A DNA stretch of 64,000 nt from an uncultured bacterium (GTDB lineage Bacteria > Desulfobacterota_D > UBA1144 > Nemesobacterales > UBA2774). Of the stretch, positions 50,371 through 64,000 are shown piece after piece. A program made the translations under genes and the position numbers. Every line of letters begins with the position of its first letter. The first letter of the stretch is position 1. The stretch covers positions 293,004 through 357,003 of the forward strand of contig CAVPJU010000003.1 in the NCBI GenBank assembly GCA_963705505.1, read 5' to 3'. The notes under the pieces are model-generated. The model saw nothing but the letters and a program-made list of their open reading frames with translations, searched no databases and had not been told where the DNA came from.

Positions 50371-51524
50371 ATGGACCATGTAATATTAAAATATTCCGAT
50401 GACTTTGAAAACCATATAGACGAAATCGCCAGACTCAAAACAATCAACTGGGGCCTGGATTTTGATGTATTCAGATCCTACGTAAAATGGAACTACATTG
50501 ACCGGCCTCATTCTAAACCACCCATAATATATTTTGTTCGAGACGGAGAAGAGGTCGTAGCCATGAGAGGCGCGTATGAAACAACATGGCAGCTAAAAGG
50601 CGCATCAGCACGTTTTAATGCACTATGTTCCGCGGACCTCTTAATACTGCAGGAATACAGGAACAAAGGTATATATAAAGAGCTGGCTAACTTCGTCATG
50701 GACGATTTGGAAAAGATGGGCGTTCAATACTTTTTTAGCTTCAATGCAACGCCCCTGAATACTATGATTTCCTTATCCATGGGTTGGAAAAGCATCGGAG
50801 AAATTAAAATCATTAATAAACAATTCCAAAGTAAAGGATCAAATGCAATCGCACTCGCCAAGAAATTAGCAGGTCCATACGCCAGAAAATTATTGAGAAA
50901 AACCGGGATCAACATGGTTTTAAAAAGGAGAAAAAGAGACAATTCACAAAGACTCGATATGATTTATCATAACCCAAGGACTCAGCTGCCTCCCCGTATT
51001 TTGTTAGACAATAAACCCAAACCGGCGGAAATGGCTCTCCTCGTTAACAGTACACTTCCGGAAAATAAAATCACCCTGGTACGAGATGAAACGTACTTCC
51101 ATTGGAGATACAATAACCCGCTTTCAAAATATCTTTTCCTATACTGGTACGATGAGGGCTTAAAAGGCTATCTGGTATTACAAAGCCATTTATACAGTAT
51201 GGAATCCAGTAGGCACACATAATATATTTGAATTAGAGGCGACTAGATTCCTCAATAAAAATTGAGCTGTTAAATACCCTGATATCAGTCGTGAATTCCG
51301 GATCAATATCAATCTGGGCAAACATGCTGGATCAAGATAGCTATGATTTCTTAGTGTCAAAAGGATTTAAAGAAGATAATTCGACAAATAGCGCAAATGA
51401 CTCTACTCAAGGTATTTTGATCCGACCATTAGGTCAACATAATAATACAATGGAATTTCAAGGGTTGAATTTGCTTGATGCAAAAAGTTGGGATCTACAA
51501 ATGATATATTTACACGATCACTGA
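50371..51524 (+). CDS. GNAT-family acyltransferase, +1 frameshift at ~51210
   Basis: Colinear with paralog 51556-52707; ORFs 50371-51222 and 51291-51524 together give full length. Confidence 0.78.
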
Positions 51525-51555
51525 TTAACCAAGATTATGAAATTCCCGAGACCAA

Positions 51556-52707
51556 ATGGACTACACAATATCAAAATACTCCGATGACTTTGAAAACCAT
51601 ATAGATCAAATCGCCAGACTCAAAACAATCAACTGGGGCCTGGACTTTGATGTATTCAGATCCTACGTAAAATGGAACTACATTGATAGACCACATTCTA
51701 AACAACCCATAATATATTTCGTTCGTTCAGGAGATGAGATCGTAGCAATGAGCGGTGTGTATGAAACTACATGGCAGCTAAAAGGCGCAACAGCACGTTT
51801 TAGCGCATTATGTTCTGCGGACATCTTAATACTACAGGAATACAGAAATAAAGGAATATACAAAGAGATGGCTAACTTCGTCATGGAAGATTTGGATAGG
51901 ATGGGCGTTCAACACTTTTTTAGCCTCAATGCAACGCCCCTGAATACTATGATTTCCTTATCTATGGGTTGGAAAAGCATCGGAGAAATTAAAATCATTA
52001 AAAAACAATTCCAAAGTAAAGGGTCAAGGGCAATGGCGCTCGCCAAGAAATTAGCAGGTCCATACGCCAGAAAATTATTGAGAAAAACCGGGATCAACAT
52101 GATCTTAAAAAGAAGAAAAAGAGACAATTCAGCAAGAATCGAGATGATTTATCATAACCCGGGGACTCAGCTGCCTCCCCATATTTTGCTAGACAATAAA
52201 CCCAGACCGGCGGAAATGGCCCTACTCGTTAACAGCACCCTGCCGAGTAATAAAATTACCCAGGTAAGAGATGAAATGTTCTTTCGCTGGAGATACAATA
52301 ATCCGCTTTCAAAATACCTTTTCCTATACTGGTACGGTGACGGCTTAAAAGGCTATCTGGTATTACAGAGCCATTTATACAGTGTAGAATCCGGGGGCGC
52401 GCATAGTATATTTGAGTTAGAAGCGACAGACGCCTCGATAAAAATCGAGCTGTTAAATACCCTGATATCGCTCATGAATTCCGGATCAATTTCAACCTGG
52501 GCAAACATGCTGGATCGAGATAGCTATGATTTTTTAGTATCGAAGGGATTTAAAGAAGATAATTTGCCGAAGAGCGCAAAAGAGCCGCCTCAAACTATTT
52601 TGGTCCGGCTGTTAGGACAGGAAAACAATAAGATTGAATTTCAAGGTCTAAATTTACTCGATTCAAAAAGCTGGGATTATAAAATGATATATTTACATGA
52701 TTATTGA
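51556..52707 (+). CDS. GNAT-family acyltransferase (tandem GNAT fold)
   Basis: YVKWNY, ADILILQEYRNKGIY (acyl-CoA motif A-like), RDEMFFRWRYNNP. Confidence 0.78.
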   Translation: MDYTISKYSDDFENHIDQIARLKTINWGLDFDVFRSYVKWNYIDRPHSKQPIIYFVRSGDEIVAMSGVYETTWQLKGATARFSALCSADILILQEYRNKGIYKEMANFVMEDLDRMGVQHFFSLNATPLNTMISLSMGWKSIGEIKIIKKQFQSKGSRAMALAKKLAGPYARKLLRKTGINMILKRRKRDNSARIEMIYHNPGTQLPPHILLDNKPRPAEMALLVNSTLPSNKITQVRDEMFFRWRYNNPLSKYLFLYWYGDGLKGYLVLQSHLYSVESGGAHSIFELEATDASIKIELLNTLISLMNSGSISTWANMLDRDSYDFLVSKGFKEDNLPKSAKEPPQTILVRLLGQENNKIEFQGLNLLDSKSWDYKMIYLHDY

Positions 52708-54157: not shown

Positions 54158-55279
54158 ATGAACTACGAGATAGTAAAATACGATCCTATTTACAATGATC
54201 AGATCTGCGAGCTCGAGAAAGAGATTTGGAGTCCGGATTTGGATGTAAATAAATCTTATCTTCAATGGAAATACTTTGAGAACCCTTATTCGGATTCACC
54301 TAAGCTATATTTAGCCCTCCTCGAAGGAAACGTAATTGCCGTTAGAGGAATGTACGATACAAAATGGCAATCGGGGGATAGTGCTGAAAGTTTTAAAGCC
54401 TTGTGTGCATCCGATTTGGTCATCCATCCGGATCATCGAAACAAGGGCTTATATCCCAAGCTAGCGAATTTTATCAATAACGATTTATATGACTTGGGCT
54501 ATCACTATCTTTTTAGTTTCAGTGCAGGCCCCGCTACTCTAATTAATTCTTTAGCCATGGGCTGGAAAAGCATCGGCAGGGTCAGAGTAATGAGTAAAGA
54601 ATTTTATCCGAGACACATCATTAAAAAATTAATGAGTCATAATACGATAAAAGAATTCATAAAAAGGACCATAGCGGCAAAATATCTGAAAATTCCGGCG
54701 AAAGCTTTTAAAAACTACCAAGAGTTTCAATATCACAAAAAAATACCTTCTCAAATAAGGATCGATAAAAATCCCATGCCCGATGAGATGACATCCCTCG
54801 TCAGGAAGCTGATACCAAACAATAAGATAGTTCTTACAAGAGATGAAAAATTCTTTAGCTGGAGATACAGGAACCCATTGTCAAACTATATCTTTTTATA
54901 CTGGTACGACGGTGGGTTAAAAGGCTACCTGGCAGCGCAAACCCGGCTGTATAAATATGGCTCCATGATCAATTTTAATATTATCGAATTAGAGGCCATG
55001 AGTTCCGGAATTAAAGTGGAACTACTGAAAACTTCGATCTCTTTACTGGGGAACAGATCGATATCAATATGGTCAACTATGCTCGATGAAACTATCCATA
55101 ACTTGCTTGTATCAAAAGGATTCAGGGAACAGAACGCGAGTAGTAGCGTCGCTGACTTTACTCCGACCGTATTGGTACGGACAACCGATGAATCAAATAA
55201 TAAAATAGAATTTCGGGGAATCGATCTCCTCGATATAAATAACTGGGACCTCAAAATGATTTATTCGGACGCCTTTTGA
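54158..55279 (+). CDS. GNAT-family acyltransferase (third paralog)
   Basis: YLQWKYFENP, SDLVIHPDHRNKGLY, RDEKFFSWRYRNP. Confidence 0.8.
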   Translation: MNYEIVKYDPIYNDQICELEKEIWSPDLDVNKSYLQWKYFENPYSDSPKLYLALLEGNVIAVRGMYDTKWQSGDSAESFKALCASDLVIHPDHRNKGLYPKLANFINNDLYDLGYHYLFSFSAGPATLINSLAMGWKSIGRVRVMSKEFYPRHIIKKLMSHNTIKEFIKRTIAAKYLKIPAKAFKNYQEFQYHKKIPSQIRIDKNPMPDEMTSLVRKLIPNNKIVLTRDEKFFSWRYRNPLSNYIFLYWYDGGLKGYLAAQTRLYKYGSMINFNIIELEAMSSGIKVELLKTSISLLGNRSISIWSTMLDETIHNLLVSKGFREQNASSSVADFTPTVLVRTTDESNNKIEFRGIDLLDINNWDLKMIYSDAF

Positions 55280-55698: not shown

Positions 55699-57519
55699 AT
55701 GGAGGATTCAAAGGTTTCTGAAAAAGTCTTAACAAGAGCTGCCAAAAAGCATAAAACCGGTATAGATGAATCAATTTCTTGCCACGAAACCGGAACGCCG
55801 GCTGAAGGATACGGCAGAAGGGAATTCTTAAAGAACGTCGGCAGGATAACGGCTACAGGCATTGCCGTAGGAAGTATCGGTTTATCTCCGCTGCTTCAGG
55901 GATGCAACGAGTCCGCAGGCGGAGAGGAAGTTAACTGTGAAATCGGACCCCAGACAGGCCCGGCCCGGGCTGACTCGTCACTTCAGATCAGGCGTAATGC
56001 GGCACAGGCCGAAAGGAATATAGGGATACCCGATCATCCGTGTAACGGGGACGAATCCATATACCCTAATAAAATCGGCAATTTTACAAAGGGGCTTCCG
56101 CACAACTCTATAGGTGAGGTCGACCTCGATTCATACGAAGCCCTCATAGCCGCGATCACAACGGGGAAGTTCGGGGACTTCGAGCTACTCGCGGTAAACG
56201 GGCAGCTTGGTTGCCCCGACCCCGGACGCCAGCGCCGGTTGGTGAACCCTCAGGCGGGATACGCATTCGATCTCGAGGGCACGGACTCCCATCAGCTCTC
56301 GATGCGTGCGGCACCGGCATTCGATAGCGCCGAGGAAGCGGGGGAAATGGCTGAGCTCTACTGGATGGCGCTCCTCCGCGATGTGAATTTCCTCGGATAC
56401 GATAGCAGCCCTCTCGCCCAGGCGGCGGCTGACGACCTGTCCGGTTTTTCCGACTTCCGCGGACCCAAGGATAACGGCATAGTCACACCGGGGACACTTT
56501 TCCGGGACAAATATCCGGGATGCACCACAGGTCCCTACATATCTCAGTTCCTGTTAAAGGATTGCCCTTTCGGCTCTCAGTTCGTAGATCAGCGTATCCA
56601 GACTACGACTGCGGTTGACTTTATGACTGATTTTGCTTACTGGCTCGATATTCAGAACGGATGTCAGCCTCAAGTCTCACAGGAGCCTGGCGGGCTTGTA
56701 TTTTGCCGTAACGGACGCGATCTTTCTCAGTATGTCCATGTCGACGCGCTCTACCAGGCGTACTTTGTCGCCTGCCTGATCCTGCTTGCGAACCGGATCC
56801 CGTTAAACATCGGCAACCCTTACGGTCAGACCCCGGACCCGGGCTCCGGATTGCCGCTACCTCCGGGCGTGAGCGGAGCGCTGGCCCAGGTGGGATTCGG
56901 CACATTCGGCGGTCCCCATATACTGGCTTTATTGACCGAAGTGTCGTCGCGAGCGCTGAAGGCCGTATGGTACCAGAAGTGGCTAGTGCATCGACGTCTC
57001 AGGCCCGAGGAATTCGGCGGGCGCGTCGAGGTAGTGCGTCTCGGCCTCGCGGACTACCCGGTAAATGGGGAGCTTTTCGATTCTTCAGTGCTCGATGCCC
57101 TTCTCAATAAAACAGGAAATTACTTATTACCCACCGCATTCCCGGAGGGTTCCCCCATGCACACCTCTTACGGCTCGGGACACTCTACCGTAGCCGGGGC
57201 GTGCGTTACCGTGTTAAAAGCATGGTTCGACGAATCAGTCGTTATTCCAAACCCGCTAGTCCCGAGCGGAGACGGCACATCGCTCGAGCCCTATGATGGA
57301 CCGCCTCTCACAATCGGAGGAGAGCTCAACAAGCTCGCCTCTAACATCTCCCAGGGGCGAAACATTGCGGGAGTCCACTGGAGGACTGACGCAACTGAGG
57401 CGAATCTGCTCGGGGAGGCGATAGCCATAAGCATACTGAGAGACCAGAGAGCGACATACAGCGAACCGTTCAGCGGTTTCACATTCACCAAGTTCGACGG
57501 GACCACGATAACGGTGTGA
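55699..57519 (+). CDS. Vanadium-dependent haloperoxidase (bromoperoxidase-type), predicted Tat lipoprotein
   Basis: Vanadate motifs QKWLVHRRLRPE, HTSYGSGH, GRNIAGVHW; Tat GRREFLK plus lipobox LLQGC. Confidence 0.9.
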   Translation: MEDSKVSEKVLTRAAKKHKTGIDESISCHETGTPAEGYGRREFLKNVGRITATGIAVGSIGLSPLLQGCNESAGGEEVNCEIGPQTGPARADSSLQIRRNAAQAERNIGIPDHPCNGDESIYPNKIGNFTKGLPHNSIGEVDLDSYEALIAAITTGKFGDFELLAVNGQLGCPDPGRQRRLVNPQAGYAFDLEGTDSHQLSMRAAPAFDSAEEAGEMAELYWMALLRDVNFLGYDSSPLAQAAADDLSGFSDFRGPKDNGIVTPGTLFRDKYPGCTTGPYISQFLLKDCPFGSQFVDQRIQTTTAVDFMTDFAYWLDIQNGCQPQVSQEPGGLVFCRNGRDLSQYVHVDALYQAYFVACLILLANRIPLNIGNPYGQTPDPGSGLPLPPGVSGALAQVGFGTFGGPHILALLTEVSSRALKAVWYQKWLVHRRLRPEEFGGRVEVVRLGLADYPVNGELFDSSVLDALLNKTGNYLLPTAFPEGSPMHTSYGSGHSTVAGACVTVLKAWFDESVVIPNPLVPSGDGTSLEPYDGPPLTIGGELNKLASNISQGRNIAGVHWRTDATEANLLGEAIAISILRDQRATYSEPFSGFTFTKFDGTTITV

Positions 57520-57593
57520 CAAGAAATCGCAACGCCGAATGTAAAAGGGAAAGCAGACGTTCGGGATTCAAGCATTCAGATCATCCGCATGAA

Positions 57594-57659
57594 TGGGCAG
57601 GGAGGGAGTCGAACCCTCATGGGCGCGAGCCCAACGACTTTTGAGGCCGTCGCGTCTGC
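57594..57659 (-). repeat. 3' two-thirds of tRNA-Leu(CAA) (att site fragment)
   Basis: GCAGACGCGACGGC-CTCAAAA-GTCGT, variable arm, GAGGGTTCGACTCCCTC, CCTGCCCA; 5' acceptor strand absent. Confidence 0.85.
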
Positions 57660-57710
57660 TAAGGTAAGTATCTTGTAACTGCTTACTTTTTTGTTGGGCT
57701 GAATACTTAG

Positions 57711-57733
57711 TGCTAACAGAATTGCTAACAGAA
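57711..57733. repeat. Tandem TGCTAACAGAA direct repeat (possible integrase arm-type sites)
   Basis: 11-bp repeat at 57711 and 57723, ~50 bp from the att core. Confidence 0.5.
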
Positions 57734-58484
57734 CTTCTCAATTTTAGTATTTTCAGAGCCTCTTTCAGTCTATCGTTTATTGGAATCTGTCTAGTTTTAT
57801 CGGATTTACTCATAGCCACGTTAATATAACCAACCTCTAGGTTCACATCCTTCCAATTAAGCGTTATTATCTCCCCATACCTCATGCCCGTGTTTAAGGC
57901 CGTTATAAGTACGGGTTTCAAATGGTCGGAGCATGATTCCAGTAACACATGTTCCTCTTCCTTAGTTAACACTCTGACCGCTTTGAGTTCTTCTTTATAG
58001 AATTTAACTTTGGATATTGGATTAGACAGACACTTGTCCCATGCTATTCCCAGATTGAACATTCTCCTTAGAAGAGAGAGTTCCATGTTCACGGTACGAG
58101 CGGATACGGACTTTTTCCTTTCCAGTTTGTATTTCTCGATCAGAATTGGACTTATCTCGGTAAGGCTATAGGAACCAAAGAATGGGACAAGACATCTAAG
58201 AGAGCACGCATCCCTATCCCAGGACCTCTTATTCTCTTTGGCATATTCTAAATAGTCCTTAGCAAACTCAGAAAAGGTGGGAGCAATCATATTAACAGGA
58301 AGATTGAATTTCCCATGTAGCACTTCGGTTTTTCTAATAGCCAGGAGCTTTCTAGCATCAGCTTTACTTACTTCCCCTACCCTGCCAACACTTTCCCATT
58401 TTCTTTTGCCGTTGACTGTGTAATCGATATACCAGTATTCACTCTTCTTCTCTTTCCATATAACCGTTCTTTTAAAGACTCCCA

Positions 58485-58775
58485 TTATTTAGTCCTCCTT
58501 CTTGTTTTCTTTTTCTCAAGCTCTTCTAATGGATCAATTTCTCTCTTTTCTTTTCCAACATAAATACAGTGAGTTTTATTCTGATAGGTGAAGTAGGCAT
58601 ACCAATATAGACCATGACCTTTTCCACCTTCTTTACACTTCTTACATCCACATTTAGCAGGTTTTTGTTGGTAGACAACAGACGGGGGGAGCTTAGCTTC
58701 TATATAGTTTTTCAACTCACGTAACTCTTTCAGATTAAGTGATTTAATTTGCTTCATCAGGGTCTTATCTATCAT
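58485..58775 (-). CDS. Small basic Cys/His protein (DUF6788-like), translationally coupled to the integrase
   Basis: KCGCKKC...GHGLYWY...YVGK; its stop overlaps the integrase ATG (TAATG). Confidence 0.7.
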   Translation of the reverse strand: MIDKTLMKQIKSLNLKELRELKNYIEAKLPPSVVYQQKPAKCGCKKCKEGGKGHGLYWYAYFTYQNKTHCIYVGKEKREIDPLEELEKKKTRRRTK

Positions 58776-58812: not shown

Positions 58813-59330
58813 TGAAAAAGTGTAGGAAATGTAGCAGAATTGATATATAGGATAACCTTTAACAATTTAGATTGACTGTTATCTAACCTGGGAAGGATTT
58901 AGAGGTTTTTGGGCGACAACTCGTGTATCTCTCATTTTCCTACACTTCCTACACCTTCTACATGCTTGGAGTGCTTGGTGTAGATAGTGTAGCAAATGTA
59001 GCAATATAGATATACCCTCTTAATAAGGAGCTAATCAGGTAGAACATTCAATAGATATATACAATATATACATGTCTAACCTAGGAAAGAAATATAGATT
59101 AGTTGATCTAGACCTATTTCTAAATATGAAGGTTCATAAAATGCAATTACAATTTTGGGTAATCAATCAATTGTCACAAGCCTATATTGAGACCGGTAAG
59201 ACTTTTGAGAAACTGTCAAAACAAAAGAACTCAATCTATGACTAACGTTGATTCAGTGTAGATGGTGTAGCAAATGTAGGTAAATATATGTTAGGATACG
59301 TGTCAAATAATTAGTGAGTTCCTAAAACAT

Positions 59331-60383
59331 ATGAATGTTGAACCATACAATAAATTACTAACAGACTTTAAATCTATCACCTCATCAGAACCTTATGAAC
59401 CTACATTTATGGATTTGTCTCGTTATCCGCACTATGAAAATGTATGTAGCAATATATTAGCCTTTTATTTTGACAGGAATGAAGCTCATAAAATGGATGA
59501 TATGCTTTTGCTCGCTCTTTGTAAGACTTATGACGATTCGTTCGAAGAATATCATTTTGACAACGTGGAGGTTAAAAGAGAGGTTCTTACATCCGGGGGT
59601 AAGTATATAGACATACTAATAGAAGATGATAAATATATAGTCGCAATTGAAAATAAAATATTCCATGAAGTGGACAATGATTTACAAGACTATTCTAGAT
59701 ACATTGATAAAATCTCAAAAGGAAGAGAGAAAATAAAGATTCTTCTTTCACTATATAAAGCTGATGAACAAGAACTAAAGAAACAAGGGTTTAAAAATAT
59801 CTTATACGCCGAGTTAATTGGAAAGATTGAAGAAACGATTGGAAGATATGTATTAGATGCTAATACAAAATATCTTAACTATATGATCGACTTTATAAAA
59901 ACATTAAAAAGACAAGAAAGGGGGAGTGCCATGAACAGGGAGTTTATCCGATTTCTTTCTGAAAATGAAAATGAAATAAACAGATTATTAGTCGATACAT
60001 CAGAGGTGAGAAAGGAGTTTAGGAGAAAACTACAGGAATTATCAGAATTAATTGAGATAGAGAAATATGGGAACGTTACACAGGGTTACTATAGAGAATT
60101 ATATGGAGAGCTATACGACACATTATATTACGATATAAAATTGCAAGAAGATTTTACCATAGCTATAGATACAATTCTCGCTGCTAGTGGCTGGTATTTT
60201 GATGTATTTCAAAGAGGACGTGATTCATCAAAGTTTGAAGAATTAATGAAAAGGAAGGATGTAAATCTGGAGCCATCTTATACAGTAGGCAGAAATAGAC
60301 TAAATGTTGAATATGATTATGATGAAAGTTTAGAAGAAATTGCACATACCCTGCAATACTTGATTGACTCGATTGCTACTTAA
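59331..60383 (+). CDS. PD-(D/E)XK nuclease superfamily protein
   Basis: HYENVCSNILAFYFD..H, VKRE, YIDILIE...IAIENKI-type motif (IVAIENKIFH). Confidence 0.8.
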   Translation: MNVEPYNKLLTDFKSITSSEPYEPTFMDLSRYPHYENVCSNILAFYFDRNEAHKMDDMLLLALCKTYDDSFEEYHFDNVEVKREVLTSGGKYIDILIEDDKYIVAIENKIFHEVDNDLQDYSRYIDKISKGREKIKILLSLYKADEQELKKQGFKNILYAELIGKIEETIGRYVLDANTKYLNYMIDFIKTLKRQERGSAMNREFIRFLSENENEINRLLVDTSEVRKEFRRKLQELSELIEIEKYGNVTQGYYRELYGELYDTLYYDIKLQEDFTIAIDTILAASGWYFDVFQRGRDSSKFEELMKRKDVNLEPSYTVGRNRLNVEYDYDESLEEIAHTLQYLIDSIAT

Positions 60384-60593
60384 ATTAGTTCGGTATCTCT
60401 CATATAACTACACCATCTACACCTGCTACATCAAAAGGTGTAGGAAGTGTAGGAGGTGTTAGACAAAAAGAAGATTTAGTAGTCCTTATGAGCATTTCAT
60501 CTTCGATAATCCTGTTGAGGTTAACGAGGTGTTGGGGTCACGAACCCATTCTGAGACCGGGTAAATCGGCAAAAATATCGTAAAATAGATCAT

Positions 60594-61805
60594 ATGGATT
60601 CCGGCGGCGGCTTTTCATTTTCAAAACAATTATCGAGGATTCAAGACCGGTATAACAACCGGCGCGAGTCATTATTTAAAATTGCAATTGGTCTGATGTG
60701 CGCCCTCGCAGTTTTAAGATTGGCGTATCAGTTCTGGCGCCTTCTCCTGGACCAGAAATGGAACGGTGCAATCGATCTCAGAATCATGCATGAATTTGTC
60801 GATTCATGGTTTAAAGGAGAACCGCTTAAGGAAATTCTCCATCTTCCCGCAACGTACGTAATGCTATGGCCCTTTACCGGGTTGATTTCTTTTGAATTCG
60901 CGAGATGGCTCTGGGCGGTTTTGTATATCGTTTCTCTTATCTGGTGCTCTTCCATAGTGATAGCTGAAACCGGGATCAAGAAAAGAGAGGAAATCTTATT
61001 TGCTGTTCTCTTTATTTTGTCGATCTACCCGACCGGAATCACTATCGGCAACGGCCAGGTCATTCTCTTTCTCCTTCCGGCTATTTTAACAGCTGTGTTG
61101 ATGGAGAGAGGGCGTGAAAGCGACATGGCTAAAGATATTATTATCTCTTTTCTTTTCCTTTTTTCCTCACTCAAGCTCACTGTTACAGCACCGTTCTTCT
61201 TAATTTCACTTATAACTCAAAGAGCGTTTCGTCCTTTACTTATTGCAGCTTGCGGTTATATCATCCTGACGTACATTGCAATATCATACCGCGACACTGG
61301 TCTTATTCAGATACTACAAGTCTGGTTGGAGGACAGTTCTGCTGTGGCAACAACGAATGGCTATGCGAACATTCACATCTGGCTCGGTAGTCTCGGCTTA
61401 AAACAATTGATATTCCCTTTCTCATTCGTCTTCATTTCAGCGTTCGGCGTTTGGTTATTCATATTCCGTAAAATCGACATCTGGATTCAACTCGGTGTTG
61501 CAGCTATTGTCGCCCGCATTTGGACCTATCACCGCCTTTATGACGATTTACTAATCCTCGTTCCGATGATCACAATTTTCAGAATAGTAAAAAGTAATCA
61601 ACTCTCCCGTAATGAGAGTCTCGTGGCAGATTTATTACTCCTAATTTCCTGGCTGGGTCTCCTCTCTCCCGGATCCTTTCTCCAGCTTCCGTTCCCTCTC
61701 GGAACCCTATCCAGGACCTGCCAGACAATTATCTGGATTTCGATGCTTGTCTTTCTCCTCTATTATGCTTACAAGATGAAAAAAGCGAACATGTCTGAAA
61801 GGTGA
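60594..61805 (+). CDS. GT87/DUF2029-like polytopic membrane glycosyltransferase (GT-C)
   Basis: AIDL, HLPATYVMLWPF, GNGQ, LK, YHRLYD; ~10 hydrophobic segments. Confidence 0.72.
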   Translation: MDSGGGFSFSKQLSRIQDRYNNRRESLFKIAIGLMCALAVLRLAYQFWRLLLDQKWNGAIDLRIMHEFVDSWFKGEPLKEILHLPATYVMLWPFTGLISFEFARWLWAVLYIVSLIWCSSIVIAETGIKKREEILFAVLFILSIYPTGITIGNGQVILFLLPAILTAVLMERGRESDMAKDIIISFLFLFSSLKLTVTAPFFLISLITQRAFRPLLIAACGYIILTYIAISYRDTGLIQILQVWLEDSSAVATTNGYANIHIWLGSLGLKQLIFPFSFVFISAFGVWLFIFRKIDIWIQLGVAAIVARIWTYHRLYDDLLILVPMITIFRIVKSNQLSRNESLVADLLLLISWLGLLSPGSFLQLPFPLGTLSRTCQTIIWISMLVFLLYYAYKMKKANMSER

Positions 61806-61974
61806 GCAGTACATCTCCGACATACTTACTATTCTGGTGTAGATGGTGTAGCAGATGTAGCAATATAAGAGATAGGTAAGGACTTTATTGGCATTTGTCT
61901 TATAGCTAAGGACATGAAAGAGTTGACCGGAATAACGATTGTAAGGGCTTTTGTAATTCAGGGCAAATCAATGC

Positions 61975-62319
61975 TCACATATCCTCTTTCTCTAACGGTT
62001 CGGTAGATGAATCCATAACAATTGAATGTAACTCTACCTCAAACCATTGCCAGAACATTTCATTAGTTCTGTCCTGTGGCAACCACGACTCTTCGGTACA
62101 CCATCCAAAAAGTAATTCATCAAAAATATCTTCATAAATCTCATCAATATATCCTTCAGCCTCTTCATCTGTGTTGTATTCAGGTATTAATATGGCAAGA
62201 CAGTCGGTCTTGAAATCATCTAGTGAGGATTCCCATTCGGCATCAGGCAATTGATTTGCCCAATCAACAAACGGCTGTTTCGGTCTTATGATTGCAATTG
62301 AACGGTTGATGGTATACAT
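61975..62319 (-). CDS. Acidic hypothetical protein
   Basis: INRSIAIIRPKQPFVDWAN...IFDELLFGW..E..LPQDR...FWQWFEVE looks like a conserved uncharacterised family. Confidence 0.7.
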   Translation of the reverse strand: MYTINRSIAIIRPKQPFVDWANQLPDAEWESSLDDFKTDCLAILIPEYNTDEEAEGYIDEIYEDIFDELLFGWCTEESWLPQDRTNEMFWQWFEVELHSIVMDSSTEPLEKEDM

Positions 62320-62552
62320 AAACAATATTATACTTTTCAGGACTCGAATAGTAAGCTTCCCCATTTAATCAGTCGCTGAATCGTGACTTCTTCATTTGAA
62401 CCTCCTGACCTACATTATTTTGCCAGAAAGTTCTACTTATCGCCTGTCTACTTTTTAGGGGAGCTTACACCTTTCCAGGAATTACGTGCCTTACGCCCCC
62501 CCTTGGATTCTCTATGTCTCCTTCTCTTCTCAGTATATCGAAATGGGTACTT

Positions 62553-63091
62553 TCACTCTGAACGCCAGAACAATAAATCTAAATATGCTCTGGGACAATT
62601 ATATTCATTCTTAGCCAATCTAGAGGCGAATTCTTGAATCTTTGCGTTATCCTCTCCTTCTAATTTCTTGATATTAACCCATCTTAATTTAATACCCTGT
62701 TTTTTGGCTTCCTTCTTAAGCCTTTCGGCATTGGGATTGTCCAATGGAACTTCGAGAAACTCAACAATTTTATCAAGGTCATAATTAGTTGAGATATATT
62801 TGTTCAGGCAGCACTCAAGAAGAAATATGTTAAGTGCTTTTCTAGCCACCTCCTTGAACTTTTATTGGGTAATTTCTCCTTCAGGTCTTTTGTAAAATTA
62901 TTAAGGAGCAAATTAAATTGTTCAGCCTCAGAAATTTCAGAAAACTTTTTCAGGGAGAGGTTGGAAAGAAATTTCCTAGCAATTTTTGCGGAACCTGCAC
63001 CTTGGTTACGTAAGGTTGTATTCCCAATAGTGATATTGGCTACCCTTCTTTGAAACTTAGATAGAACTCCTATACTAACTATATATATCAA
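62553..63091 (-). CDS. Hypothetical protein split by a frameshift near 62850
   Basis: Overlapping ORFs 62804-63091 and 62553-62849 read as one protein (TLRNQG...ARKALNIFL...LEVPLD...LDLLFW). Confidence 0.55.
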
Positions 63092-64000
63092 AATTTAGGT
63101 AAAGCAAGTGTAGAAATGTAGATAATCCTTTTCTCAACCATTCAACACCAAATCGAACCTCTGCTTCAAGTCCAGGTAATCCTTCTGCCACTGCTTCAAC
63201 CCCCTTTTCAAGACCGAAGTGTCCTGTGCCGAAGCTGAACCTCACCCAAAAGCTAGACCCGGTAAATTAGAGATTTGTGATATTACGAATTGATTCTTTC
63301 ATACCCAACAATCGTCATGTTATACAACTATGATTAGAGCAATTAGATATAGTCCTTTTTACCTACACTTGCTACACCTGCTACATATTTAATGTAGTTA
63401 GTGTAGGAAATGTAGATATATAGAGATAAGCCTGAGAATAGAAATTTTAATTTTCACTGAGCTCGTGGTGGGGTGGGAGACGTACCTCATACGATAAAAC
63501 TTACTACGTTCCAAGGGTAAGGCTCATTATGTTTATTCTAATGATATGGTCCTAATATAGTGTGGACAGGTCACTAGTTATTGGCAATTTCGATTTCTCA
63601 GAAAATATAGATGACTTAGAATGCGACTTAGTCTTTGAAAAATCCTTGATAAACTTATAGCATGAAATATCAATTACTTATGATCAATTACATTCTAATC
63701 CCATCTCAATCTAAACGGAACTCTGACACTTCAAAATATTTGTAAGATTTAACAAAGAGCAATCAAATAAGGCAACTCCATATGGTTTATTTTGTTGCGT
63801 ATTCTTTTTAGTTAGAGGTAGGGTGAGGGTTAACTCGATATAATCACGCGGCATTATACCTATGGGGAATTTGTTTTGAGGTTGTGGTATCCCTCCACAA
63901 GCCCACTTCGACCATCTCTATAGACCATCTTGGCTCCATAATTATATTCTTTAAATGTACCAATCGGTTCTTGAATTGCAATTTTCAAGTTTTTAATATA

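Follow-up and report, generated by a model that had tools for sequence, protein, structure and literature searches.

The window analysed here, a stretch of 64,000 nucleotides from an uncultured bacterium, ends in an island whose genes are separated by short oriented arrays of the hexamer RTGTAG, and the question is what these arrays are and why one island holds so many. The preliminary description offered two answers: sites that define exchangeable gene cassettes in an undescribed system, or the multiply duplicated iteron origin of a satellite-like element that acts as a cargo hotspot. The second has held up, with a helicase gene on the other half of the island, array pairs at the 3' ends of helicase genes and a geometry like that of SaPI5. 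Taken together, the analyses make it very probable that the arrays are origin iterons, and the repeats between cargo genes are most likely extra origin copies, apparently left where related elements recombined.

The window carries one half of the island; the other half lies on contig C6, past tRNA-Leu-CAA, and the island middle is unassembled. Sixteen matches to RTGTAG-N3-RTGTAG were found in the window, every one within 58820-63415, in line with the earlier remark that none was noticed in the first 57 kb, and matches were present in none of 100 shuffles of the window. Hexamer density is 4.9 per kb past position 57660 compared with 0.49 per kb before it. The matches make up nine strict arrays. 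The ten previously counted are reached only by including a degenerate doublet at 63108..63121 (+ strand), probably the tenth array meant, because its period is 8 bp and not the strict 9 bp. The three arrays quoted earlier as examples are exact in sequence, and the claim that arrays lie only between island genes also stands, as none of the nine overlaps the seven island ORFs tested.

Six of the nine strict arrays are the arms of three back-to-back pairs. The leftmost array is single, with two units (58820..58834, +). It is followed by a putative origin core at 58940..59001, a pair of 3+3 units around a 14-bp spacer (left arm 58940-58963, -; right arm from 58978, +), which is 91% identical over 76 bp to a pair in the C1 island; the genes on both sides differ. 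A conserved AT-rich accessory segment (59127..59255, +), which begins AAGGTTCA and recurs beside arrays of related elements, sits between a pair and a single array of three units (59256..59279, +), both running in the same direction; SaPI-type origins are described as two opposed iteron sets around a central AT-rich region of ~100 bp. The next pair, at 60408..60452, has 3+2 units and a 6-bp spacer (arms 60408-60431, -, and from 60438, +), and its junction with the following gene recurs in contigs from other runs. A single array of three units with a GAGATAG flank, detected by motif scan and matrix, lies at 61837..61860 (+). The last pair, at 63363..63415, has 3+3 units and a 5-bp spacer (arms 63363-63386, -, and from 63392, +); read along the island, it directly repeats the second pair on C6 (73% over 205 bp).

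The two island halves add up to five pairs plus three single arrays. The island pairs align better as direct repeats in island orientation, with one ambiguous, and so are co-oriented. Spacers of the seven pairs in the genome measure 14, 6, 5, 13, 16, 14 and 7 bp and are not conserved in sequence, and unit-to-unit similarity often breaks off near the GAGATA flank. Several array arms have decayed. Multiplicity is not limited to this island, several arrays also being present within related elements.

Throughout the genome, 30 doublets occur in four places only: the window contig end, the C6 end, a tRNA-Pro island on C1 and one C9 site. A scan matrix trained solely on arrays of other genomes and metagenomes found 16 sites, all at the same four places, and none in the reversed genome; the motif is confined, not scattered genome-wide. 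In databases, across phyla, 48 of the 67 ORFs that end at a pair are replication helicase or primase genes (D5/DUF5906 35, DUF3987 8, AAA_25 3, DUF3631 1, PrimPol 1), in a scan that was itself selected on the RTGTAG hexamer and in which a long ORF ends at the pair in only 77 of the 161 loci of at least 1 kb examined. In 47 of the 48 helicase-linked loci of other lineages the pair is single and internal. An exact back-to-back 9-bp pair of any 5-mer was absent in 14 of 14 viral relatives of the helicase and at 13 of 15 other loci near helicase homologues or D5 genes, and the exact Dadabacteria-type arm had no match among viral contigs. The same hexamer accompanies, in G004 and G014, helicases without detectable similarity to the C6 helicase family, and the binding protein is therefore not pinned to one helicase family.

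Inspection of the rest of the island for a replication protein was successful. The C6 half encodes a 387-aa MCM-like, DUF3631-related helicase with conserved Walker A/B and arginine-finger-like motifs, and an array pair lies 170 bp 3' of its stop codon. It has a profile match of 97.7% to a DUF3631 protein whose own gene carries the same pair in its 3' end, and homologous helicase genes in G097, G024 and L181 have arrays inside their 3' ends. The structure model (pLDDT 81.5) finds its best folds in MCM AAA+ (Z 17.1, rmsd 3.0, 217 aligned), followed by SCCmec Cch (Z 14.9, rmsd 8.3, with 285 aligned over residues 9-330) and by SaPIbov1 Rep (Z 12.8, rmsd 8.2, 262 aligned). The Cch and Rep alignments reach residue 330-332 of the whole-protein model, in which a small domain (2qvo) also matches residues 250-341 (Z 9.2). 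The closest known systems include the SaPI origins with their self-loading Rep helicases (SaPI5 PriRep5, SaPIbov1 Rep) and SCCmec Cch (PDB 8tch, 7ola and 5dgk).

The SaPI5 origin is described as lying downstream of rep and consisting of three consecutive 7-bp iterons spaced by AA and an inverted iteron at a distance of 15 bp (bioRxiv 10.64898/2026.10.17.759575). This element has the corresponding parts as far as model and sequence can tell: a predicted AAA+ (SF3 or MCM-like SF6) Rep helicase whose putative C-terminal domain aligns to those of SaPI and SCCmec Cch (bioRxiv 10.64898/2026.10.17.759575), a candidate origin that directly follows the helicase gene or lies within its 3' end, and putative iterons that form triplets of 9-bp period and come with an inverted iteron at a distance of ~15 bp. 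AT-rich DNA next to the iterons and an integrative element with accessory cargo are likewise shared. The iteron sequence is a different one, the helicase copy has no fused primase, and neither PHROGs matches for the scanned ORFs nor packaging-hijack genes were detected in the assembled island halves. Whereas one ~300-bp origin is described for SaPI/SCCmec, here five pairs and three single arrays stand among the cargo. The unusual feature is this multiplicity of origins within one island and not the motif, and the surprise is limited because origins with motifs of this sort are ordinary. Since the pair adjoins helicase or primase 3' ends, usually once, and has the SaPI5 geometry, the arrays are read as origin iterons and not as a new cassette site.

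The cargo between the arrays is varied and stands in both orientations. A PD-(D/E)XK nuclease of the PADLOC candidate defence family PDC-S26 (59331..60383, +; E 2.4e-104) had been described as bracketed by arrays resembling terminal inverted repeats. The bracket looks inward-facing because pairs lie on both sides of the gene; its two arms agree at 26 of 45 positions and the flanking match is just 2 bp (CA), on which grounds the reading of the bracket as a TIR transposon or MITE is not supported. The GT87-like membrane glycosyltransferase (403 aa; 60594..61805, +) has no Pfam match of its own, and its earlier label is upheld through a 78% identical homologue that matches GT87 (E 1.8e-8). This gene is a copy of one found, without arrays, in an ordinary chromosomal neighbourhood of the genus; the G006 island copy has one array upstream, and homology with it ends at a short, presumably IS3-like terminal sequence (61801..61813, +). 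Sequence comparison places a 129-aa protein of no known function with an IS-end-like segment (62373-62469) at 61975..62469 (-). Two short overlapping ORFs without a family match (62553..63091, -), possibly one broken gene, form a block that is flanked by array-like sequences in one soil contig. A 3'-end remnant of an IS3-family (rve_3) element (63236..63360, -) is fused to a pair arm; it also occurs beside pairs on C6, C9 and G004, and array-free in other genomes. RTGTAG arrays were found at none of the homologous loci elsewhere (0/5 GT87-like, 0/4 for the 129-aa gene, 0/1 PD-(D/E)XK).

Integron cassette arrays have oriented repeats between variable genes, adjoining a tyrosine recombinase. The likeness to the present island is plain in these respects; here, however, the genes occur elsewhere without the site, which is an origin motif linked to a helicase, and the cargo stands in either orientation. 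As the cassette gene does not travel with the site at any of the homologous loci, an integron array was rejected.

The breakpoints that the preliminary description expected at arrays are only partly there. Long unique homology with the C1 island stops inside arrays at 58829 and 59277, the latter end being that of a 93% identical stretch beyond which the cargo differs. Counted by hand, only 5 of the 12 homology ends come within 25 bp of an array, two partly by construction, and other ends coincide with IS3-type ends. At the first C6 pair, the right arm and its flank encode 37 aa that match the C-terminus of helicase P0004 at 68% identity (E 1e-16), and the left arm joined to this fossil P0004-like helicase tail has no counterpart at P0004. 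In G006 a half-pair is fused at the spacer to a truncated host gene. The flank comparison found one flank type with four different opposite flanks and another with six; full four-way assortment was not seen.

Our preferred reading, to which we assign a probability of roughly 0.6, is that the arrays are origin iterons of a small helicase-encoding element in tRNA-Leu(CAA), the origin having been multiplied as sibling elements recombined there. If the helicase works as SaPI Rep does, one hexamer would bind the 9-bp-period triplet through three neighbouring winged-helix domains, the inverted triplet beyond the spacer would complete helicase loading, and the adjoining AT-rich DNA would melt. Many copies would build up in the island because the origin is the main conserved sequence beside the cargo: siblings, as circles, tandem copies or a circle and an integrated copy, could cross over in the 24-bp arrays or in the accessory segment, and an unequal exchange would place a directly repeated origin between the earlier cargo and the new. 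Extra origins may persist if origin-rich molecules replicate well. IS3-type elements would be a second, independent route of gene acquisition, and a dedicated cassette recombinase would be unnecessary.

Whole elements may instead have piled up in tandem at att and then lost their integrase and helicase genes by deletion while origins and cargo stayed behind, in which case the arrays would be survivors and not crossover points. Second int(C) fragments inside the G004, G024, G009 and G014 islands, the fossil helicase tail on C6 and an eight-codon int(N) stub behind a DUF6788-like gene in the C1 island are what such a history would leave, but the sequenced island parts contain no internal att core or integrase fragment between arrays, and L181, which has a single integrase and a junction of attP type, already carries four array sites; we consider this account unlikely. 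Somewhat more doubtful is that origin-plus-cargo units are non-autonomous mini-replicons, which would loop out between direct-repeat origins, be amplified in trans by the helicase and re-enter at another origin, the extra origins being selected for gene amplification or exchange. The co-orientation of the units, the occurrence of pairs in helicase-free islands (C1 island, L232 and the C9 site) and the 91% identical C1 and window pairs between different genes would suit it; it is countered by the decayed arms, by cargo homologues without arrays and by the lack of a single-unit circle among assembled contigs of small-share runs.

The cassette system of the preliminary description, in which a recombinase would bind the triplets and exchange strands in the spacer, can claim the array breakpoints, the inverted arms enclosing a short spacer, the spacer junctions in G006 and at the first C6 pair, and the independently assorting flanks. 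Yet spacers vary over 5-16 bp, the pair is a single internal helicase-linked site at nearly all loci from other lineages, IS3-type ends account for further breakpoints, cargo does not move together with the site, and inspection of complete relatives (the G014 and L181 elements) turned up no second recombinase, so that this alternative is weakly supported and improbable. The least probable account is that the pair is a small mobile palindrome, MITE- or REP-like, which inserts alone into AT-rich intergenic DNA. The Prevotella genome G120, with 87 overlapping pair matches on many contigs in a repeat of ~200-340 bp, and the loss of similarity near the GAGATA flank recall such elements, but sites in the present genome share island polarity at their four places, the target-site duplication at the one unit tested is at most 2 bp, and an empty site was not found. 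A GTAG-tagged REP was rejected, as the GTAG runs straight into the next unit where a stem-loop of 5-13 bp is required (PMC3733652, Table 1).

The origin-recombination reading bears on how satellites exchange genes. PICMI, P4-like and other primase-helicase satellites share a minimal set of integrase, regulator and helicase and rapidly swapped cargo that includes candidate defence genes, and the PICMI-defining DUF3987 and DUF5906 helicases are among those found beside the pair (PMC10803314, PMC13586616). The exchange mechanism is left open, with no mention of reiterated origins in the parts of these papers drawn on here, and the recent survey among them leaves that of satellites and small integrative elements open (PMC13586616). 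The present element differs in that its cargo also includes captured chromosomal genes and in having no known helper phage. More speculatively, origin reiteration may itself be the gene-capture mechanism of bacterial integrative elements with suicidal integrases, origins serving as crossover points and selectable cis sites, and origin-plus-cargo units being added, amplified in trans and shuffled between islands; we think this less likely than not. If true, it would explain in concrete terms how satellite hotspots swap their cargo and, at its extreme, explain dozens of solo origins in some Prevotella genomes. Origin-centred recombination is testable because its junctions carry a recognisable origin motif, and the back-to-back triplet also offers an easy way to recognise, across phyla, the origins of uncharacterised elements of the DUF3631, DUF3987 and D5 types.

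In SV40 variants the origin is reiterated along with host DNA. Polyomavirus defective genomes retain the origin (PMC8316075), and such replicons resemble the island in keeping the origin while other genes are lost or replaced; here, however, the origins belong to an island that is stable in a bacterial chromosome.

The island boundary is marked by an attR core at 57581..57659 (-), 79 bp that exactly match the 3' part of tRNA-Leu(CAA) and a few bases beyond it; the complete tRNA lies on C6 (815532-815615). The N-terminal part of a tyrosine integrase, int(N) (57568..58485, -), was recognised by Pfam and motifs (arm-binding, SAM, TGMR), and the part with HxLRH, GH and Tyr sits after the tRNA on C6, with a +1 frameshift ahead of GH..Y. 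The integrase reading frame runs through the core on both sides. This is the layout of a suicidal (att-in-gene) integrase, int(N) plus int(C), with the catalytic Tyr in int(C). Joining at the core gave a full integrase of 383-408 aa with TG(M/L)R, HxLRH and GH..Y in five of seven pairs tried (G049, G014, G006, G041 and G097, the last three joined across contigs); the G096 pair has no shared core. Beside int(N), a 96-aa DUF6788-like protein (58485..58775, -; Pfam E 0.03, which fails the cut-off; Atlas 0.90, DUF6788 clusters) with an 87% identical paralogue in the C1 island is possibly a directionality factor or regulator.

Judged by its sequence, this bacterial element carries a self-splitting integrase of the kind described mainly from archaea. 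The archaeal suicidal integrases (SSV-type, pTN3, pT26-2) share the att core, a tRNA 3' part, inside the integrase gene, the products int(N) and int(C), the latter holding the catalytic Tyr, and a core reading frame that varies between elements (PMC8371274, PMC7253208). They differ in that the host here is a bacterium and the integrase of bacterial type; the SSV family proper was rejected, as PF00589 with HxLRH is found here against K..R for the SSV type. Att-in-gene integrases are called exclusive to archaea in a 2021 review (PMC8371274), and integrases that are split between catalytic motifs in a bacterial lineage would extend that class. The int gene of phage Mx8 extends across attP (PMC4383910), and integration alters only the C-terminal region of its integrase, according to a title cited there, whereas in this element the att site cuts between the catalytic motifs.

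Arrays are taken here as two or three RTGTAG units at a 9-bp period, and pairs as two back-to-back arrays (arms) across a spacer. All 16 RTGTAG doublets of the window fall within 58820-63415, with none in 100 shuffles, and the preliminary description was right that the arrays exist and are restricted to the island within the window. The ten arrays counted there become nine strict ones, all intergenic, as the tenth is reached only by including a doublet at 63108 that has an 8-bp period; six of the nine form three back-to-back pairs. The whole genome holds 30 doublets, confined to four places. The genome-wide matrix scan proposed in the same description was performed with a matrix trained on 25 arrays from other genomes and metagenomes, and detected 16 sites, every one within these four places; the reversed genome gave none. 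Each of the 119 further genomes searched in the class has 0 to 7 doublets, close to reversed-pattern controls. Viral contigs gave one match to the pair pattern and none to the arm consensus, and Rfam returned nothing for the array pairs except a chance miRNA match on one pair. An assembly artefact was considered as the source of the array-gene joints and rejected, as the joints 60444-60634, 60417-60567 and 61794-62047 recur in contigs from other runs; none of the runs exceeded 14% of the island words, and uncovered stretches in this comparison carry no meaning.

The window reaches the end of its contig, C3, and the island continues from the end of a second contig, C6. Positions 57581-57659 duplicate, exactly and over 79 bp, the 3' portion of tRNA-Leu(CAA), and the full tRNA lies near the C6 end. 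No overlap was found between the C6 and C3 contig ends, and their linkage is deduced from the duplicated att core and from one half of the integrase, int(N) or int(C), being present on each side. Read from the tRNA, C6 carries int(C), an unknown gene of 246 aa, a 387-aa ATPase, a pair, two cargo ORFs and another pair before the assembly gap. The reversed window tail follows with a pair, cargo, a single array, a GT87-like gene, a pair, the PD-(D/E)XK gene, a single array, an AT-rich accessory segment, a pair and a single array, and closes with a DUF6788-like gene, int(N) and the att core. About 12 kb of the island is sequenced, and its arrays add up to five pairs and three single ones. The pairs align with higher scores when taken as direct repeats in the orientation of the island, the pair at 60408 being ambiguous. 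The PD-(D/E)XK nuclease is a member of a candidate defence family. Elsewhere in the genus the GT87-like gene has an ordinary chromosomal neighbourhood, so the island copy was probably captured.

To the left of the island is a low-GC glycan cluster with three paralogous acetyltransferase-like genes (50371-52707 and 54158-55279), the first of them broken to a shorter ORF when examined by eye. Directly adjoining attR, 55699-57519 encodes a 606-aa PAP2-superfamily protein (a weak Pfam match), which by eye is vanadium haloperoxidase-like with a Tat-type leader. In genomes G007 and G009 this gene likewise comes after int(C) stubs.

Both halves of the integrase keep their reading frame through the att core. 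Joining the halves at the core gave ORFs of 383-408 aa with all catalytic motifs in the related genomes G049, G014, G006, G041 and G097, the last three being joined across contigs. The integrase of this genome has a +1 frameshift ahead of the GH and Tyr motifs, which is either real or a sequencing error, and the integrase pair of G096 has no shared core. The tRNA reading frame in G097 differs from that in this genome. In locus L181, int(N), core and int(C) form one continuous stretch, the arrangement expected of either an excised circle or a tandem junction, and these two are indistinguishable since no exact terminal overlap was found when the locus was tested as a closed circle. Split tRNA-Leu integrases of this order were observed at 57568-58485 with L001:3551-3910, at L339, at L025 with L353 and at L181; the att site of this family cuts between catalytic motifs and the core frame varies, and in several other genomes tRNA-Leu is followed by an int(C) stub alone. 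PMC8371274 calls att-split integrases exclusive to archaea and PMC4383910 describes the Mx8 integrase as extending across attP.

The helicase which the preliminary description proposed looking for in the rest of the island is the 387-aa ATPase of the C6 half, with a pair following it. Sequence searches of Pfam, PHROGs and PDB gave no family for it, and alignment with 22 homologues showed Walker A and B motifs. A single-sequence fold (pLDDT 33.5) was discarded and an alignment-based model (pLDDT 81.5) used; its best match was to MCM AAA+ domains, and it also matches SCCmec Cch and SaPIbov1 Rep over nearly the entire folded length. The helicase profile gave a 97.7% match to a DUF3631 protein. 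The pair scan recovered at least 117 stretches in GTDB genomes and at least 120 in metagenomes. Among the matches listed, an ORF of at least 250 aa ends at the pair in 77 of 161 loci of at least 1 kb. The set of ORFs scanned came to 67 after removal of a duplicate and of the 24 loci listed from a single Prevotella genome, and 48 of these ORFs ending at a pair, again among the matches listed, are replication helicases or primases (a raw count that includes several near-duplicates); 47 of these 48 listed loci have one array site only. The SaPI5 origin, located downstream of rep, has three 7-bp iterons two bases apart with an inverted iteron at 15 bp and is bound by the winged-helix domains of the hexamer, according to bioRxiv 10.64898/2026.10.17.759575. 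This layout is that of the island pairs.

As a type of origin the motif is already known, and from these comparisons we estimate a probability of about 85% that the helicase would bind the arrays and that they would function as origins. Two observations count against a simple story of one protein and its site. The same hexamer accompanies the helicases of the relatives G004 and G014, which had no similarity to the island helicase in profile comparison, and no exact pair of any 5-mer was found near 14 viral relatives of the helicase. The pair also occurs in the archaeal or archaea-like loci L044, L082, L185, L203 and L238; those in L044 and L082 are placed where a distant homologue of the island helicase ends.

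Relatives also carry multiple array sites: L181 has four, G097, G024 and L232 have two apiece, and G014 has two if a degenerate pair is included. In integron cassette arrays, oriented repeats lie between variable genes beside a tyrosine recombinase, and the island arrays had been proposed, as one alternative, to bound exchangeable cassettes of an undescribed system. Some breakpoints do fall inside them. On C6, the first pair has a right arm that runs on into 37 codons with 68% identity to the C-terminal end of a different helicase (P0004), and the left arm joined to it is missing from the P0004 coding sequence. Long homology to the island on contig C1 stops within arrays at 58829 and 59277, with differing cargo beyond. 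In G006 the spacer of a half-pair forms the joint with a truncated host gene, and the half-pair is followed by the same GT87-like gene, here without the nuclease. Flanks outside the arms assort independently, and three pairs in native position retain both flanks. The chimera, the C1 homology ends, the G006 fusion and the flank assortment therefore place crossovers at the arrays. Other findings speak against a strict cassette rule. Of 12 homology ends, five are no more than 25 bp away from an array by hand count; others coincide with short terminal sequences which we take to be IS3-type ends, one of them being the 3' end of an rve_3 gene; and arrays were absent from all 10 of the loci inspected in which cargo homologues occur elsewhere. 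On a soil contig the 62470-63228 block lies between array-like sequences and is without the 129-aa gene; joints at this 80% likeness may stem from repeats.

Starting from the observed element boundaries, helicase, array geometry, position and polarity, and chimeric junctions, we lean towards a model in which sibling elements would cross over within arrays, and unequal crossovers would leave extra origins behind. Host homologous or microhomology repair would be sufficient for this. SV40 variants, in which the origin is reiterated with host DNA, are used as an analogy; selection favouring extra origins is speculative. The element's own integrase is a candidate for the crossovers because some archaeal suicidal integrases catalyse low-specificity recombination, according to PMC8371274. 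Comparison sources were PMC13586616 and PMC10803314 for satellites with defence hotspots, PMC3733652 for REP, PMC8316075 for polyomavirus defective genomes, and PMC7253208 and PMC5861418 for suicidal, SSV-type integrases. A literature search that covered few subscription journals returned no description of origins reiterated amid cargo genes, nor of a bacterial family of integrases divided in mid-domain. The repetition of the motif between cargo genes, together with the split bacterial integrase, distinguishes this island and makes it worth testing.

The C1 island (L002:2700-13052) lies at tRNA-Pro(CGG), where the tRNA 5' half and upstream DNA are duplicated. Its own integrase is intact, and its array sites are a pair and a single array that has the accessory segment beside it. 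A DUF6788-like paralogue and a stub of int(N), eight codons long, are also present, and no helicase was found among the genes of the island. The right part of this island derives from the tRNA-Leu element family. Other genes of the C1 island encode an SGNH hydrolase, a TPR protein of 1573 aa and an ATP-grasp protein, the gene for which has two paralogues in the chromosome. On contig C9 a pair is flanked by IS-like ends, with no integrase seen in its surroundings.

In Prevotella G120 (L054 and other loci) there are 87 overlapping pair matches on many contigs, inside a repeat of about 200-340 bp, with 12 matches in G121 and four in G122; all three genomes encode DUF5906 helicases. The Prevotella copies look like an origin-derived dispersed repeat. 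No empty site was found for one such copy, the flanking genes of which are on separate contigs in relatives.

In sibling elements, three helicases unrelated to one another are followed by two short conserved genes of 88 and 60 aa (at L181:4980-5430, L022:826-1262 and L025:1217-1692), for which no family was found and which are absent from this genome. At three separate junctions (L003:8326, L188 and L378) one IS-like terminal sequence recurs at a distance of 14 to 28 bp from an array arm, and the window has it at 61801-61813, 23 bp before the 61837 array; this recurrence may reflect targeting of origin flanks. The accessory segment (59127-59255, and in L245, L257, L181, L232 and L244) is about 150 bp long and begins AAGGTTCA. 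Its reading as an ORF was rejected, since the frame is not kept across elements, as was that of a segment upstream of the GT87-like gene as an IS481 end, which alignment puts within the conserved accessory segment. The accessory segment adjoins one arm type, at no fewer than 10 arms.
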